A stretch of 32,000 bases of DNA from Candidatus Woesearchaeota archaeon (GTDB lineage: Archaea > Nanobdellota > Nanobdellia > Woesearchaeales > JACPBV01). The stretch covers positions 55,379 through 87,378 of the forward strand of contig JACPII010000002.1 of the NCBI GenBank assembly GCA_016188175.1. Reading direction: 5' to 3'. The translations under genes and the position numbers were made by a program. This document shows, one piece after another, positions 3,069 through 29,571 of the stretch (position 1 is its first letter; every line of letters begins with the position of its first letter). The notes below the pieces were generated by a model, which was not told the DNA's origin, searched no databases, and was given only the letters and a program-made list of their open reading frames with translations.

Positions 3069-3265
3069 TTTTCAACCTCAATGGCGAAATCGGGGCAGAA
3101 CTTTTCGCAGAGTTGGCACTTCGTGCACTTCCCCAACGACACGATCTCATTCCCTTTTATCATAAGGTCCTTCGCCGGGCAGATATAGACGCAGATAGAG
3201 CAGAGCTTGCAATATCCCTTGATCCAGGTAAGGGGCCCCCCGATTTTTTTCTTTTCAGCTTCCAT
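3065..3265 (-). CDS. korD: 2-oxoacid:ferredoxin oxidoreductase delta subunit (2x[4Fe-4S] ferredoxin)
   Basis: Two CxxCxxCxxxCP motifs (CKLCSICVYICP, CTKCQLCEKFCP). The ATG at 3265 (MEAEKKK...) is preferred over the track GTG at 3277, which lies inside the promoter repeat. Confidence 0.75.
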   Translation of the reverse strand: MEAEKKKIGGPLTWIKGYCKLCSICVYICPAKDLMIKGNEIVSLGKCTKCQLCEKFCPDFAIEVEK

Positions 3266-3332
3266 ATCAATAAACACTTGCGATAAATATCAATAAACAC
3301 TTGCGATAAATATCAATAAACACTTGCGATAA
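3264..3332 (-). repeat. Perfect 3 x 23-bp tandem repeat (unit on - strand TTATCGCAAGTGTTTATTGATAT) abutting the korD start codon
   Basis: Units 3264-3286, 3287-3309 and 3310-3332 are identical. Each carries AAGTG-TTTATTGA, which resembles the BRE/TATA seen elsewhere in the window (AAAAAGTTTATATA). The last AT of the proximal unit forms the korD ATG. Confidence 0.9.
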
Positions 3333-3439
3333 AGGCAAGCCCATCTGAAGGGCATAAACGGAGGTATTTAAACTTTTTCAATGAAAAAATCTTAATAAAA
3401 CCACAACCTTAATATACATTTTACCTCCCCCAGCGGATT

Positions 3440-11800: not shown

Positions 11801-11820
11801 TAATAATCCTTGCTTTTTCC

Positions 11821-12095
11821 GTGTGTATTAAGCTCCTATCGGAGCGGCTCTGCAATCTTCAAAACTCTTAATGTGTTTCAAGATAGCCCTGCGTCCCCGT
11901 AAGGGAAGGCGAAATGTTCCGGTGCCTTCGGCACGGAGGGCGACCCCCGCGACGGTCTGGCTGTTTTTTTCCAAAGACACAAATATGTATACCCAATTGT
12001 TGTGTCTTTCGATATAGCAGGTGAAATTTTGCATGATTAATTTTGTCACCTGCTATAGGATGGCAGAGCCGCACTTAACGGGGCTTAATACATAC
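11821..12095 (+). mobile_element. MITE-like non-autonomous element, copy 1 (275 bp), flanked by 8-bp target-site duplication CTTTTTCC
   Basis: TIRs are 11821-11836 GTGTGTATTAAGCTCC and 12080-12095 (rc GTATGTATTAAGCCCC), 14/16. CTTTTTCC occurs at 11813-11820 and 12096-12103. There is a nested IR GCGGCTCTGC / GCAGAGCCGC (10 bp). No credible ORF. It shares a 68-nt core and a 14-mer with the element at 27597-27760. Confidence 0.8.
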
Positions 12096-12137
12096 CTTTT
12101 TCCGAAAAAGGATATGACAGGAATCATTAAATAATCA

Positions 12138-24792: not shown

Positions 24793-24970
24793 TGCTGCTC
24801 ACCAGATAACTGCTGCACACCAAATAGCTTACGGCCTGAAATCCCACCATACCGATCCTTTCGGGATAGGGGGAGCTTTATAAATGTTTTGTTCGCCCGT
24901 AAAGAGGCAAAAAAAGTGATGATAAAGGCTTAAAAATGATAGACTCGAAGTCATCTCTCCAAGGGCAGCA

Positions 24971-25129
24971 ATGAACAAGGGGAAAAATAGGCAAAGAAAA
25001 AAACTCAAAGGAAATCCGGCCACAGAAAATCTTCGGATTTTCTTTGTCGCGCTCGGCATTGCCTCGGCAACGGTCAAGGGCCGGACGGAATGGGTGCATT
25101 CAAAAAAAACTTCGAACAAAGGATGGTAA
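24971..25129 (+). CDS. Candidate 52-aa small protein (basic N-terminus plus one hydrophobic segment)
   Basis: Manual ORF MNKGKNRQRKKLKGNPATENLRIFFVALGIASATVKGRTEWVHSKKTSNKGW. It is preceded by TTTATAAA (about 24877) and followed by a hairpin plus T6. No recognisable family. Confidence 0.25.
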   Translation: MNKGKNRQRKKLKGNPATENLRIFFVALGIASATVKGRTEWVHSKKTSNKGW

Positions 25130-25143
25130 ATAAAAAATACCAG

Positions 25144-25169
25144 CCGCAGCAAGCTGCGGGGTATTTTTT
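25144..25169. terminator. Bidirectional hairpin terminator (CCGCAGC-AA-GCTGCGG) flanked by T-runs on both strands
   Basis: 7-bp GC-rich stem 25144-25159. On + it is followed by TATTTTTT; on - it is followed by TATTTTTTATTT. It lies downstream of the - strand gene 25229..25810 and the + strand small ORF. Confidence 0.55.
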
Positions 25170-25228
25170 AACCTCTAAATGGGTTTTGAATCGTAGCAAG
25201 CTGCGGGGTATGAACCCATTTCGAGGAA

Positions 25229-25810
25229 TCAACTTTGAGGATTAATCTCCTCAAAATGAGCCTGAAACCCCTGATAAGCTGGTTTTTGGCAGAGAAGTTC
25301 AAAAAGCCCTTTCAATCTTTCCTGATATTCATGCGGAACTGGCCCAAAATCCCTTGAGGCACCCCTCAAATTAATTCTGTTGTCCTTTAAATCAAATTTG
25401 CCTCCGCCAATCCCCTTTATAGAAAACATTGTTCCATTTTGCTCAAGTCTTATTATCTTATGGGGGAGATTTCCAAACGCCATTTTTTCATATGGCCACG
25501 AGAAAGGGATTTCGATGATTCCTTTTAGGATTGGCAGTAATTCCTCCCTCAAAAAATTTTCACCAATGTCTTCATGCCCCATTGAAGAATAATCAAATCC
25601 TCTGAGATAAAGCCGGGAGAAATTTTGGTCACCCTCTGCTACGGCAACTTCTAGAAGCAAATACTTCCTTTCAGCACCCGTCCTTTTTAATGCCACCGGC
25701 CCCCTTGAAGTGAAATGCCTAAGCTCTTCGCCAGCATATTCTCTCGATGGGTCAAACCCCTCCCCCCTATCCAACCGATTGGCAAATTCTAAATTTTCTT
25801 CATTGAGCAC
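25229..25810 (-). CDS. Hypothetical protein, 193 aa, no recognisable motif
   Basis: Long ORF in a stretch that looks A+T-rich by eye, divergent from AbiEi, with structured 3' flank. No family assignment was possible by eye. Confidence 0.55.
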   Translation of the reverse strand: MLNEENLEFANRLDRGEGFDPSREYAGEELRHFTSRGPVALKRTGAERKYLLLEVAVAEGDQNFSRLYLRGFDYSSMGHEDIGENFLREELLPILKGIIEIPFSWPYEKMAFGNLPHKIIRLEQNGTMFSIKGIGGGKFDLKDNRINLRGASRDFGPVPHEYQERLKGLFELLCQKPAYQGFQAHFEEINPQS

Positions 25811-26036
25811 CTAGTCAAGAGTCTCAAGCTTTTGCTGGATTTCTTTTAACATTTTGATCAAGAAATGAGAGTTTCATAAGGTTTAATAATTTATCGAAAA
25901 CTGATGAGGGTGAAACAGGAAATGGAGAACCTAATGCTTGAGAATGATAATTAATGCCAAAACGGATGCATATTGTCAAAGTTGATGATGCTGATGCTGG
26001 CAGTTGTTCATTACCTGACACATCGAAACCCTTAAA

Positions 26037-26072
26037 TAGTAGTTTTCTTTAATATCAGTATAATAACTACTA
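26037..26072. promoter_or_regulatory. Inverted repeat TAGTAGTT-N20-AACTACTA spanning the AbiEi promoter (operator candidate)
   Basis: 8-bp perfect arms at 26037-26044 and 26065-26072. The TATA-like TATAATAA lies between and overlapping them, and the ATG is at 26086. Confidence 0.4.
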
Positions 26073-26085
26073 AATTATTAGAAAA

Positions 26086-26808
26086 ATGCAATTAAGCAAA
26101 CTTGAATCACAAGCCGACGAAGCGCTGAAGAAAAACAATCTTGCTATTTTCACGGCTAAAGACCTGATGCTGCTGCTTGGAATTAAACGGATGAAAGCAT
26201 ACAACCTCGCAAAAGCGCTCAAGCGGAAAGGCGCTGTCAATGCTGTAAAAGGCGGCATGTTTGCGTTGGCAGGCACCAATGAGCTTTCTTTTGGCCAGCA
26301 TCTTAACTGGCCTTCTTACCTGAGCTTTTGGTCTGCGTTGAGCTATTACGGATATTCAGACCAGATGCCTAGGACGCTCTTTTACGCATCAGTCAAATAC
26401 ATGAAAAAAAGAGCGAACTGCCAATTCGTTGCATTGTCCAATAAAAGATTCTTTGGCTACACCAGCATAGGGAGCATCACAATCGCAGAGAAAGAGAAAG
26501 CCTTCGTCGATTCATTGTTGTTTCCCAAATATGCCGGCGGCATGAATGAGATAAGCAGATGCCTGAAAAATGCATTGAAGGATATTGACATAAAAAAGAT
26601 GGCCAGCTATGCTGAAAAGGTGGGGAACAAAGCGGTGTTGCGCAGGCTTGGGTTTTTATTGGAAATTACCGGCATTGATAGCAGCCTCCTATCTGGATTA
26701 AAAAAGGGCATAGGCAGCGGATACGAGCGCATTGATCCCTCGCTTCCAAAAAGGAATCATTTTAATAAGGAATGGCTCCTGGACGTCAACGATGATATCG
26801 CTCACTGA
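26086..26808 (+). CDS. AbiEi-family antitoxin / wHTH transcriptional regulator
   Basis: The N-terminus (FTAKDLMLLLGIKRMKAYNLAKALKRKGAVNAVKGGMFAL) looks like a winged helix. The size and the 17-nt overlap with a downstream DUF1814 NTase gene are typical of AbiE modules. Confidence 0.7.
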   Translation: MQLSKLESQADEALKKNNLAIFTAKDLMLLLGIKRMKAYNLAKALKRKGAVNAVKGGMFALAGTNELSFGQHLNWPSYLSFWSALSYYGYSDQMPRTLFYASVKYMKKRANCQFVALSNKRFFGYTSIGSITIAEKEKAFVDSLLFPKYAGGMNEISRCLKNALKDIDIKKMASYAEKVGNKAVLRRLGFLLEITGIDSSLLSGLKKGIGSGYERIDPSLPKRNHFNKEWLLDVNDDIAH

Positions 26809-27538
26809 GCTTAGCGAGTTAAAGAACAGGCGGAAAACCAATCTTTATTACGAAGAGAAGGAATATCTCCAGTATATTTTCCTTCATGCATTATCAGGAT
26901 TTCCGAATAGGTTTGTATTTAAGGGAGGGACCTGCCTGAGGATATGCTATGGGCTTGAGCGGGCATCAGAAGACCTGGATTTCAGCACCACTGCCTCTTT
27001 GGCTGAAGTCAGAAAAATTGTTTCCCTATGCCTGAAGGATTTTGAACTGCTTAACATTAAACACGGGGTTTCCGGAGAAAAAGAGCATCAGGGAAATCTT
27101 CGGATAGAAGTGCGTTTTGAAGGCCCTTTATTTTCAGGAACTCAGGCATCAACAAACACCTTAAAGGTTGATTTTAATAAAACCCATGTTAAACAAAAAG
27201 TTGCAAAAGTTGTTCCCCAGATTTTCTCAGATATTCCAGCATTTACTATCTTTGCCATCGATGAAACGGAGATACTTGCAGAAAAGATAAGGGCTCTGGC
27301 GAACAGGAGCGAATCAAGAGACTTGTATGATGTGTGGATGCTGTTGAGCAAAGGTGTCATAATTGACAGAAAATTGCTGGATGCAAAGCTTAAGGAAGAG
27401 CATAGCAGCCTCAAAAATCTCAAGGTGCCCATCAAACAGGCATACGAGAGAGACCTGAAAGGCCTGCTGCTTTTCCTTCCGCCTTATGTACAAGTCAAGG
27501 AAGAAGTGCTTAATGGGATTTTGAAAGGTATAAATTAA
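26792..27538 (+). CDS. AbiEii/AbiGii-family nucleotidyltransferase toxin (DUF1814)
   Basis: FKGGTCLRICYGLERASEDLDF matches the family signature. The Met at 26792 is preferred to the track start at 26732. Confidence 0.75.
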   Translation: MISLTELSELKNRRKTNLYYEEKEYLQYIFLHALSGFPNRFVFKGGTCLRICYGLERASEDLDFSTTASLAEVRKIVSLCLKDFELLNIKHGVSGEKEHQGNLRIEVRFEGPLFSGTQASTNTLKVDFNKTHVKQKVAKVVPQIFSDIPAFTIFAIDETEILAEKIRALANRSESRDLYDVWMLLSKGVIIDRKLLDAKLKEEHSSLKNLKVPIKQAYERDLKGLLLFLPPYVQVKEEVLNGILKGIN

Positions 27539-27596
27539 GCCCGGTTGAGAGCGGCCCTGCCATCCTAAAGTCAAAATTCCATCTAGAAGAACCACC

Positions 27597-27760
27597 GTAT
27601 TTGTTTAGCATCCTCAGGTCGAAACTCCCTTGAGCCCACCTTGAGTCCGTCGCGGGGGTCGCCCTCCGTGCCAAAGGCACCGGAACTTTTCGCCTTCCCT
27701 TACGGGGACGCAGGACCTGCCAATCTTACGTCGAGAGTTTCGAAGATGCTAAACAAATAC
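27597..27760 (-). mobile_element. MITE-like non-autonomous element, copy 2 (164 bp), flanked by 8-bp target-site duplication GAACCACC
   Basis: Perfect 16-bp TIRs GTATTTGTTTAGCATC (27597-27612; rc at 27745-27760). GAACCACC occurs at 27589-27596 and 27761-27768. An inner stem TCGAAACTC/GAGTTTCGA is present. The core 27647-27714 is the reverse complement of 11888-11955 (66/68). Confidence 0.85.
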
Positions 27761-28411
27761 GAACCACCAGGGAAACATCCTTTTCCTCCCCAATTTGTTC
27801 AGCCGTGTCTCCATCTCAGAATGGTTTTCGAACAGCATCTCATCCCGCTTGAACGCTGGAGTATGATGGAAGCTCCTGCTTTTCCCCTTTACGAATTTGT
27901 GCTTCTTATGGAGCAGCTCATGATACAGGACATAGTCTAAAAGATCTCCATCCTGCCGGAGGGCAGTGCTTATCGTTACCGTATCGCTCCCATAATGGTA
28001 ATGGCCGAGGGTCCGAAAGCTGTGGCTGCCCCATTGCAGGTTCGGGATATCCAATGCTCCATGGAAATATTTCTCATTCAGGGCGGAAAACCGTTCTGCC
28101 AGAAAAGGGTCAACGTTTGTTTTAGGGGACGCAAGGTGTACCTTTTTCATAAAGATGGAATACAGCTCCATCTCAGGCGTTTGCGTAACAAGGGGCGTAA
28201 TCCTTTTCCGCAACAGCTTGGCCAACAGCTCCTGCACAAGCCCGATCTGTATCTCTTTGCTTACTGTCCTCCAATCCCGGGAAAGGTTGAACTGGACATG
28301 CTTTCCCTCCATCCGGATATTCGCGTTGAACGCCTTAAATTTCCCAGAATAAGAAAGTGAAGCGGTGTAGGGAAAATTGGCATACAGCCCATTGATTGCT
28401 TCCTGAAGCAT
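27749..28411 (-). CDS. SprT-like / DUF45-type zinc metalloprotease; C-terminus supplied by the MITE
   Basis: YVLYHELLHKKHKF (HExxH) preceded by WGSHSFRTLGHY. The last three sense codons and the stop (GTA TTT GTT TAG) lie inside the element TIR. Confidence 0.6.
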   Translation of the reverse strand: MLQEAINGLYANFPYTASLSYSGKFKAFNANIRMEGKHVQFNLSRDWRTVSKEIQIGLVQELLAKLLRKRITPLVTQTPEMELYSIFMKKVHLASPKTNVDPFLAERFSALNEKYFHGALDIPNLQWGSHSFRTLGHYHYGSDTVTISTALRQDGDLLDYVLYHELLHKKHKFVKGKSRSFHHTPAFKRDEMLFENHSEMETRLNKLGRKRMFPWWFVFV

Positions 28412-28467
28412 GAGACAAGCACCCCAAAAGTTCCTCTGAAAAACACCCTCGGAAAATTCTCCGTTGC

Positions 28468-29571
28468 CTAGCCGCTCTGGACTTGATAGCGGAGTATTCC
28501 CGCAATCTTTCCAATATCCCTCAATTGGACACCCTCCCTTGTTTCGGTTGAGATAAGCACAACGTTCGTCCCCATCTTTCCCGCCTCCTGCTCAAAAAGG
28601 TCAATCTTCTCCTCGGAAAGCTCATCGGAAAGCAGCAATGTGTCGACGGCACCCTGCTGGAGCCTGGAGAGGACCTCAGCCTCGCCATAACTCGCCATCT
28701 GGGGGTTCTTTGCAAGCAGATCAAGAAATTTTGTCACTATCTTCTTTTCTGCCATTATTTCCTCATTCGCAAGAAGGTCATCCGACCGGTCGACCAATTC
28801 CTGCAGCCCGAATTCCCCCGTATAGCCCAGATCCTTGATGCCGATGATCTTCTTCCTAAGCTCGTTCGTGATAAAGCCCCCATCGACAAACTCATATTTT
28901 GTCGGACCCGGCCCCCCAACGATGATGCCTTTCAGGTCTGCATTCCCAAGAAACTGGGATTTGACATACTCGGCAACTTTTTTGAAATGCTCTTTTGCGG
29001 CACCCTCGATCAGGCGATGGAAACGTTGGGAAGATTGTCCTCCGGCCTTGAATTTCCCCGGGACTTCAGAATGTGTCTTTACCAAGGGCACGATAGTTTT
29101 CCCTTTCAGGAGCGCGATCTGCGCATCCCTCCGGTCCAAAACCACAAGCCCATACACCTCACGCTCATCGAGCATCTCCTTCAACAGGTCTAAAACAAAC
29201 TCTTTATCGCAGCGGTAGATCCTCGTCTTTAACGGGATAGGAGGCTCAATGCTCCACACCCGGTAATCCTGCTTTCCCTGCTGTGCAGCAACATTCCCCG
29301 AGAACGCAGCAAGCCCATGTTCCGGCGTTCCATTGAACAGCCGCAGATGCTGTATCATCCTTTCTAAAGCATCGATGACATTTTTCCGTGTCGCAGAATC
29401 CTTGATATTGGTCGCAGTCCCGGCTTCCTGCTGCAGGTGCTGGATGATCTTGACAATTTCATACCCTTGAGGGATATAGACCGTGACCAGCTCGGTATGC
29501 CTCCCTTGATATTGGTCCAGCTCCTTGATAAATTTCTTCAGCTTGTGCTTCTGCTGCTCGGTAAGGCTCAT
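28468..29571 (-). CDS. prf1: Peptide chain release factor aRF1
   Basis: TATNIKD (NIKS-type motif), GGQSSQRF (GGQ) and the YxCxxxF-region equivalent (IYRCDKEF). TTTATATAA lies about 25 nt upstream of the ATG. Confidence 0.9.
   Translation of the reverse strand: MSLTEQQKHKLKKFIKELDQYQGRHTELVTVYIPQGYEIVKIIQHLQQEAGTATNIKDSATRKNVIDALERMIQHLRLFNGTPEHGLAAFSGNVAAQQGKQDYRVWSIEPPIPLKTRIYRCDKEFVLDLLKEMLDEREVYGLVVLDRRDAQIALLKGKTIVPLVKTHSEVPGKFKAGGQSSQRFHRLIEGAAKEHFKKVAEYVKSQFLGNADLKGIIVGGPGPTKYEFVDGGFITNELRKKIIGIKDLGYTGEFGLQELVDRSDDLLANEEIMAEKKIVTKFLDLLAKNPQMASYGEAEVLSRLQQGAVDTLLLSDELSEEKIDLFEQEAGKMGTNVVLISTETREGVQLRDIGKIAGILRYQVQSG

Follow-up and report, generated by a model that had tools for sequence, protein, structure and literature searches.

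A miniature element with the ends of an IS66-family transposon supplies the last codons and the stop of a protease gene in a DPANN archaeon

The 32 kb stretch that was analysed as a whole (the window) belongs to an archaeal MAG of 1.64 Mb, which consists of 119 contigs, has 47% G+C and is 75% complete. The MAG is placed in the Woesearchaeota (DPANN) by the names given to homologues. The window carries a gene for a zinc metalloprotease of 220 aa that converges with an AbiEii toxin gene, and where the two genes approach each other the DNA is made up of two MITEs of different type (Table 1). The sister species has the gene order L37ae, aRF1, protease, a 449-nt spacer, histone, eIF5A, M50 peptidase. 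In the window this spacer is longer by about 2.5 kb and contains the AbiEi/AbiEii toxin-antitoxin pair as well as a 193-aa ORF. The spacer of the sister species itself contains other repeat families of the host genome.

Table 1. Features at the protease locus and genes elsewhere in the host genome that run into copies of the A-type MITE. Positions without a contig name refer to the window.
Feature	Position	Strand	Remarks
Studied window	G000:C68:55379-87378		32 kb
Full B-type MITE	11821..12095	-	8-bp duplication CTTTTTCC at 11813-11820 and 12096-12103
AbiEii toxin gene	26732..27538	+	probable start 26792; PF08843, E = 1.5e-31
Truncated left end of B-type MITE, GTATAAATTAAGCCCGGTTGAGAGCGGCCCTGCCATCC...	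27528..27583	+	takes up the whole spacer between AbiEii and the protease gene
Former last codon and stop of the protease gene, TTC TAG	27583..27588	-	orphaned, cut off from the gene by the MITE
Left copy of the 8-bp target-site duplication, GAACCACC	27589..27596	.	abuts the element end
A-type MITE, 164 bp, non-coding	27597..27760	+	long imperfect palindrome; GC-rich hairpin core at about 27644-27714
Left terminal inverted repeat, GTATTTGTTTAGCATC	27597..27612	+	16 bp; first 13 nt are the termini of the IS66-family partner
Right terminal inverted repeat	27745..27760	-	exact reverse complement of the left; first 12 nt on the minus strand are Val-Phe-Val-stop of the protease
Right copy of the 8-bp target-site duplication, GAACCACC	27761..27768	.	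minus strand (T)GG TGG TTC is W-W-F of the protease
HExxH zinc metalloprotease gene, 220 aa, SprT/Spartan-like by profile	27749..28411	-	intact; last three codons and stop from the MITE
GrpE gene ending VFV-stop	C61:8418-9038		Pfam-supported
TatD gene ending VFV-stop	C16:5273-6085	-	Pfam-supported
Lit-like membrane protein gene ending VFV-stop	C91:4576-5226		Pfam-supported
Ig-like ORF ending VFV-stop	C92:2970-3419		positive coding score; candidate
108-aa ORF ending VFV-stop	C104		without support
Probable genes entering the element in another frame	C25:18665 and C74:12087		gain 20 residues

A homologue of the protease was found in 36 of the 40 relatives that were searched. The HExxH motif and a later histidine are present: the residues H164, E165, H168, H182 and H183 do not vary in an alignment of 26 sequences, and the protein from the window retains each of the 27 invariant positions of this alignment. 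An earlier note on this DNA, made from the sequence by itself, had labelled the protein as SprT-like. This label is justified by the homologues, many of which carry a precomputed match to PF10263, and by a profile of the 26 sequences, which matches the SprT domain of Spartan (6mdx_A, E = 1.4e-4) and also the minigluzincins 4jix and 4jiu. The protein by itself, however, does not earn it, as it gave no PF10263 match in Pfam even at E up to 10, and no match in NCBIfam.

On the minus strand the end of the protease gene reads ...CCC TGG TGG TTC and continues with GTA TTT GTT TAG, which are the element bases 27749-27760, the TAG stop being formed by bases 10-12 of the terminal repeat. The ORF thus reads into the element, and the final Val-Phe-Val-stop is encoded by the terminal repeat, as the earlier note had stated. 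When positions 27597-27768 are deleted, which removes the element together with one copy of the flanking octamer, the end ...TGG TGG TTC TTC TAG (PWWFF-stop) is restored and the protein has 218 aa. That this represents the end of the gene before insertion had also been proposed, and close homologues do stop at exactly this position (see below).

The 16-bp repeat matches twice in the window, with 0.01 matches expected, and in none of 100 shuffles were two matches reached. Octamer GAACCACC occurs exactly twice in the 32 kb, each copy touching one end of the MITE. As previously described, the inverted repeats are perfect and the octamer flanks them on both sides; coordinates and sequence matched throughout. 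An octamer with at least two copies anywhere in the window was obtained in 21 of 100 shuffles and is thus not rare, so that the abutment is significant only because it is taken together with the 8-bp duplication rule of the whole family. As RNA, the 164-bp element forms one long hairpin with -73.6 kcal/mol (z = -5.9). Scans of the window with Rfam models and for tRNAs (ARAGORN) gave no match, and the GC-rich core of the MITE is therefore no known RNA gene. All but one of the reading frames of the element are closed within 20 codons.

The original end of the gene can be read from relatives. In a large protein collection the nearest ones are P0002 (88% identity, 218 aa) and P0003 (77%). Their genes lack the element and stop exactly at the reconstructed position, with the proteins ending ...GRKRLFSSWLF and ...GRKRFLSLWLF, respectively, while the window protein ends ...GRKRMFPWWF-VFV and its reconstruction ...GRKRMFPWWFF. 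The DNA of the three genes is collinear up to TGG-xTC, where the relatives continue with TTC TAG or TTT TAA and the window continues with the element. The orthologous empty site is present in two contigs of the sister species (L063 and L129). On L129, which has 12.8 kb, the uninterrupted site reads TCC TGG TTC TTC TAG ATG AAT TTT (protein ...SWFF-stop), and the window without the element reads TGG TGG TTC TTC TAG ATG GAA TTT; in the sister species TGGTTC is followed by TTCTAGATG.

The earlier note had suggested two checks, namely to align homologues for PWWFF-like ends and to search for the empty site. The first has a clear outcome: among the 25 homologues that were aligned, the last residue is Phe in 22, Trp in one and Leu in one, one is shorter, and none ends in VFV. 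The note had named two observations that would argue against an insertion: homologues without the element that also end in WWFVFV, or the lack of an empty-site variant combined with an octamer that is a common local repeat. No homologue with such an end was found, and the octamer is not a local repeat. The second check succeeded for the orthologous site in the sister species but not for a same-strain empty allele. An exact search with the empty-site 26-mer gave no match in metagenome_contigs and genome_contigs, and the reconstructed 218-aa protein is absent from a collection of 15 billion proteins. Little weight can be given to these same-strain negatives, as the best match among JGI proteins has an identity of only 56% and the species is apparently missing from the collections. 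The allele with the insertion is the only one that was seen, across several samples.

As Phe is the terminal residue in 22 of 25 homologues and Val is the terminal residue here, the change may not be neutral. One alternative accepts the insertion but takes it to be damaging: loss of the C-terminal Phe, or the hairpin in the 3′ part of the mRNA, would impair the protein or the expression of the gene, which would be a pseudogene in the making. The strong hairpin described above does follow right after the stop codon, and a published proposal is that processing by RNase III can be set off by the stems of MITEs at 3′ ends (PMC5896051). Against such damage stand the intact ORF with its HExxH motif and the full set of invariant residues, the new tail, which is still hydrophobic and has a penultimate Phe, and the occurrence of the same allele as the sole one in several samples. 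The protease gene is under purifying selection overall, with a dN/dS of 0.14 when compared to the 88%-identical orthologue on L063, a value that covers the whole divergence and not just the time after insertion. We consider a damaged gene to be improbable and assume that the altered protease still works.

Both junctions of the element are real and occur in independent assemblies of several runs. The exact 220-aa protein and the right junction are found on 5 Logan contigs (SRR12113421, 24, 25, 33), all of which break about 45 nt into the element. The left junction is found on contigs from SRR12113429, 21 and 20, where the AbiEii end ...CCATCTAGAAGAACCACC is followed by GTATTTGTTTAGCATCC.... All of the short-read contigs with either junction thus break inside the element, and many contigs of the host genome end in copies of the A-type MITE. 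This would also be expected if the contig had been joined erroneously across the repeat, with the protease gene and the left flank originating from different places. The left flank, however, has the second octamer followed by TTC TAG ATG, which is how the protease gene of the sister species continues and would not be expected from another locus. The two sides therefore represent one locus, and an assembly artefact is highly improbable.

On the other side of the insertion, the convergent AbiEii gene has a comparable end. The terminal repeat of the truncated B-type MITE contains the final codons of this gene, (..G)-I-N, together with the TAA stop. The C-termini of AbiEii homologues fall within 1-12 residues of this position, and their tails are unrelated. 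The 45 nt that separate the stop of AbiEii from the old protease stop consist entirely of the B-type left end. Thus, both convergent genes are capped by transposon ends. The truncated copy is 85% identical over 47 nt (12053-12099) to the full B-type copy in the window, and 45 of 55 positions agree by our own count; a right end was searched for within 27000-29000 and was not found. The full B-type copy (11821-12095) had previously been listed as the first copy of the same MITE. This assignment does not hold. The two elements are related, but the B-type copy has longer and different ends (GTATGTATTAAGC...), and what it shares with the A-type copy are subterminal blocks and a GC-rich core of 68-71 nt only.

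The A-type MITE is a member of a large family. The host genome contains 57 copies with paired, inward-facing ends, which range in size from 125 to 394 bp and have no ORF. They fall into size classes of 131/132 bp (27 copies), 164-166 bp (9 copies) and 198/199 bp (5 copies), with a few copies up to 394 bp. These classes differ by whole hairpin modules in the GC-rich centre, and the stems show compensatory changes between subfamilies. The 164-bp unit is matched from its first to its last base in no fewer than 28 other regions of the genome. A-type ends are also present in 11 of 150 other sampled genomes of the order, which belong to different families.

The 8 bp that flank the copies are identical in 35 of the 57 cases and have at most one mismatch in 48, while the duplicated sequence varies from copy to copy. 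Together with the orthologous empty site, this family rule supports the 8-bp target-site duplication that had been claimed for the protease locus. Target preferences were analysed for the 48 duplications with at most one mismatch. A run of four or more A or T is found in 23 of them, as compared to 8.9% of the octamers of the genome (p = 2e-12). The first position of the duplication is G in 22 of 48 cases, and there is a weak palindromic signal outside of the duplication, with T at -2 (29 of 48) and A at +9 (36 of 48). The site in the protease gene is atypical for the family, as its duplication GAACCACC is GC-rich and is accompanied neither by T at -2 nor by A at +9.

An autonomous partner was not evident from the host genome. 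A DNA search revealed no pair of terminal repeats more than 400 bp apart and no repeated long IS-like DNA, and a Pfam search of the host genome with the ISL3, IS1595, IS256 and IS66 models remained empty. Two transposons of the host genome were considered as partners and rejected, an IS4/5-type element (C19:2-1240), which has unrelated ends (GGGCGTTGCGTGGATATT), and a frameshifted IS6-type gene on C72, the ends of which (GATTAAGTC...) do not match. The partner was found via unpaired termini. Two contig ends in a related genome (G108) break inside a longer element that has the same terminus, and this fragment codes for the C-terminal 185 aa of a transposase (PF03050, DDE_Tnp_IS66, E = 4e-21). 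Used as a query, the fragment has matches in 40 of the 400 further genomes from this order, and four of the matches are complete elements.

The four full copies in relatives have a length of 1555-1594 bp, one ORF of 439-458 aa and the termini GTATTTGTTTAGC, with one mismatch in one of the right ends. Each is flanked by a perfect 8-bp duplication (AAAAAATT, GAATAATC, CATAATAT and ACAAAAAT). Target duplications of 8 bp are known to be characteristic of the IS66 family, and the ends of IS66 elements begin with GTAA, usually GTAAGCG.... In each of the 1.56-kb elements, just one sense ORF reaches 120 aa or more when its own shadow frames are disregarded, which fits the single-ORF (ISBst12) group. 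The partner resembles the ISBst12-like members of the IS66 family in its DDE_Tnp_IS66 domain, its single ORF of about 440 aa, its 8-bp duplications and its termini that start with GTA. The termini differ in being GTATTTG... instead of the usual GTAAGCG..., and the partner is assigned to this group tentatively, by its architecture.

In the host genome, which is 75% complete, the transposon is represented at two contig ends (C22:1-156 and C109:14990-15117) by just its last 45 codons (...NRMLTANLC-stop) and its terminus, GCTAAACAAATAC; the flanks of the two fragments differ. At least two copies are thus present in the host genome but are broken in the assembly, which explains why the Pfam search for IS66 was empty. 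The terminal 13 bases of this transposon and of the MITE are identical, and the two are unrelated beyond these. It is usual for a MITE to share little beyond the ends with its transposon (PMC3119063). The MITE family is thereby tied to a single-gene IS66-family partner, and we infer that the copy in the protease gene was mobilised by a transposase of this kind.

The 164-bp element shows the features by which a MITE is recognised: it is short, has no coding capacity, carries terminal inverted repeats, is flanked by a duplication of fixed length and variable sequence, occurs in dispersed copies, has an IS partner, and has an orthologous empty site. That the palindrome is instead a native 3′ hairpin, such as a terminator or a regulatory element, with octamers that are repeated by chance and without any insertion, would agree with its strong fold and with the repeated octamers in the shuffles, but this reading is already refuted by the 57 family copies between unrelated flanks with their own 8-bp duplications, by the two orthologues which lack the element and stop one codon past the octamer position, and by termini which are those of an IS66-family transposon.

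We consider it likely, with a probability of about 0.88, that a MITE has inserted near the stop of the protease gene, that it was mobilised in trans by an IS66-family transposase, and that the gene was left open. According to this proposal, the DDE transposase of the 1.56-kb transposon would recognise the shared terminal bases and move the MITE in trans, making staggered cuts of 8 bp. The element would have inserted into octamer GGTGGTTC, which reaches from the third-last into the second-last codon of the gene. This would have separated the gene from its last codon and stop (TTC TAG), in the place of which the repeat, being in frame, would provide GTA TTT GTT TAG. The protein would only have changed from ...PWWFF to ...PWWFVFV, and from 218 to 220 aa. 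Insertions of the family persist mainly in those gene ends and spacers of the very gene-dense genome that are rich in A/T tracts. Copies inside genes are located 0-14 codons from the native stop, most often in the frame where the TAG of the repeat terminates translation at once.

The protease is not the only gene of this genome that ends in VFV-stop. We searched for ORFs that start outside a copy of the MITE and run into it, and found further such ends (Table 1), so that the in-frame termination which the earlier note had ascribed to the element is seen repeatedly. In each of the VFV-ended genes, the native stop is found 0-14 codons further on when the element is removed. Other probable genes enter the element in another frame. 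The frame with the immediate TAG (frame 0) is used in five of seven cases when genes are selected by coding score (binomial p about 0.045) and in all four cases when they are selected by Pfam (p about 0.012). Three relatives provided four usable cases, with one in frame 0, one in frame 1 (which adds 47 aa) and two in frame 2. As there are only four usable cases and just one of them is in frame 0, the bias is not reproduced in the relatives. The excess of frame 0 is marginal and at most suggestive, and selection may filter the reading frame of insertions. It is doubtful that the TAG of the terminal repeat represents a built-in 'safe landing' device, with copies at gene ends surviving, in a DPANN genome that has hardly any spacer DNA, mainly when this TAG is in frame. 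If it did, a recurrent VFV tail would be expected on otherwise unrelated proteins, and the family would be able to colonise coding 3′ ends which are closed to other elements.

Overlaps of MITEs with the 3′ ends of genes have been described for bacteria. In Coxiella burnetii, copies of the non-coding elements QMITE1 and QMITE2 extend 1-50 bp into the 3′ ends of functional genes, in some cases supplying only the stop codon so that the protein length is barely changed, and all of the affected functional genes have the insertion at the 3′ end (PMC5896051). The Coxiella elements differ in their bacterial host, their unrelated sequences and their association with IS1111, while the family described here is found in a DPANN archaeon, has a partner from the IS66 family, and adds the same three residues (VFV) in several genes. 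In enterobacteria, a repeat of the RU-1/ERIC type is joined to the 3′ end of the conserved enzyme gene ECA3499, where it has removed the normal stop and adds element-encoded residues past the conserved domain (PMC2759123). Such RU-1/ERIC fusions add 13-35 residues, whereas here three are added and one is lost; hosts and elements are also different.

Among archaea, MITEs are known as SM1-4 of Sulfolobus and as the HqIRS families of Haloquadratum (PMC3119063), and in a MITE census a Woesearchaea genome was among the most MITE-dense archaea (PMC11602168). The family described here resembles archaeal MITEs in being short and transposase-free, in having the ends and the duplication length of a resident transposon, and in being abundant in a small genome. 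In the literature on archaeal MITEs we found no description of this family, nor of an archaeal MITE from which gene after gene obtains an identical C-terminal tripeptide together with the stop.

In summary, the insertion into the protease gene is well supported but ordinary in kind, and no general concept is changed because the same type of 3′-end overlap has been published for bacterial MITEs. What is new is the IS66-family autonomous partner, the occurrence of at least three further Pfam-recognised genes that end in VFV, and a second, truncated MITE that provides the stop of AbiEii. For annotation this is a warning: in genomes of this kind, a C-terminal 'VFV' is the footprint of a transposon, and so are many of the contig breaks. 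An abundant MITE family of DPANN archaea is linked to an IS66-family driver, and housekeeping proteins such as GrpE, TatD and the protease now share a common tail that is derived from this element. The protease locus provides a fully reconstructed example of transposon tolerance in a very compact archaeal genome, where the element supplies the stop while one residue is changed and two are added.

The Val-Phe-Val-stop end that the terminal repeat of the A-type MITE provides for the SprT-like protease is found in other genes of the same genome. Four of them, coding for GrpE, TatD, a Lit-like membrane protein and an Ig-like ORF, take VFV and a TAG stop codon from the element, and upon its removal in silico a native stop is reached 1-14 codons downstream in all four cases.

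The 48 insertion sites reconstructed from copies of the family in this genome, whose 8-bp duplications have at most one mismatch, frequently have A/T tracts within the duplication. A further target signal lies outside of it, with T at position -2 in 29 and A at position +9 in 36 of the 48 sites.

At 24800-27600 in the window, the protease and histone genes are separated by a spacer about 2.5 kb longer than that of the sister species (loci L129 and L130; 88% protein identity); the surplus carries an AbiEi/AbiEii toxin-antitoxin pair along with a 193-aa ORF. The 449-nt spacer of the sister species is itself home to other repeat families of the genome studied here. Upstream of the 193-aa ORF there are two copies of CG(C/T)AGCAAGCTGCGGGGTAT (25145-25164 and 25192-25211, 47 nt apart), each containing the short palindrome GCAGC..GCTGC. 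Elsewhere in the window (3264-3333), the 24-nt unit ATATCAATAAACACTTGCGATAAA occurs three times, perfectly identical and with a spacing of 23 nt.

The entire spacer between the AbiEii and protease genes consists of the left end of a truncated B-type MITE, the terminal repeat of which also ends the AbiEii gene, providing its final codons and its TAA stop. GATGGAATTTT overlaps the inner break point of this MITE and resembles both the interior of the element and native sequence 3′ of the protease stop. This double likeness is a hint of microhomology-mediated deletion.

Features of the window and of other contigs of the same genome
Feature	Location	Strand	Remark
GrpE gene	C61:8418-9038		VFV + TAG from element
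TatD gene	C16:5273-6085	-	VFV + TAG from element
Lit-like membrane protein gene	C91:4576-5226		VFV + TAG from element
Ig-like ORF	C92:2970-3419		VFV + TAG from element
193-aa ORF	window 25229-25810	-	
AbiEii gene	window 26732-27538		convergent with protease gene
B-type MITE, left end	window 27528-27583		truncated
IS4/5-type element	C19:2-1240		310-aa ORF; ends GGGCGTTGCGTGGATATT
IS6-type transposase gene	C72:19662-20132		frameshift-split; at contig end

As partners of the MITEs, the IS4/5-type and IS6-type elements were rejected, as neither fits the MITE ends. At four loci in other genomes (L143-L146) there is an IS66-family insertion sequence of about 1.56 kb with a single ORF, 8-bp duplications and the termini GTATTTGTTTAGC. 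In the genome studied here, all that was seen of it are 3′ fragments located at the ends of two contigs (C22:1-156 and C109:14990-15117). We consider it likely that this single-ORF element drives the MITE family.
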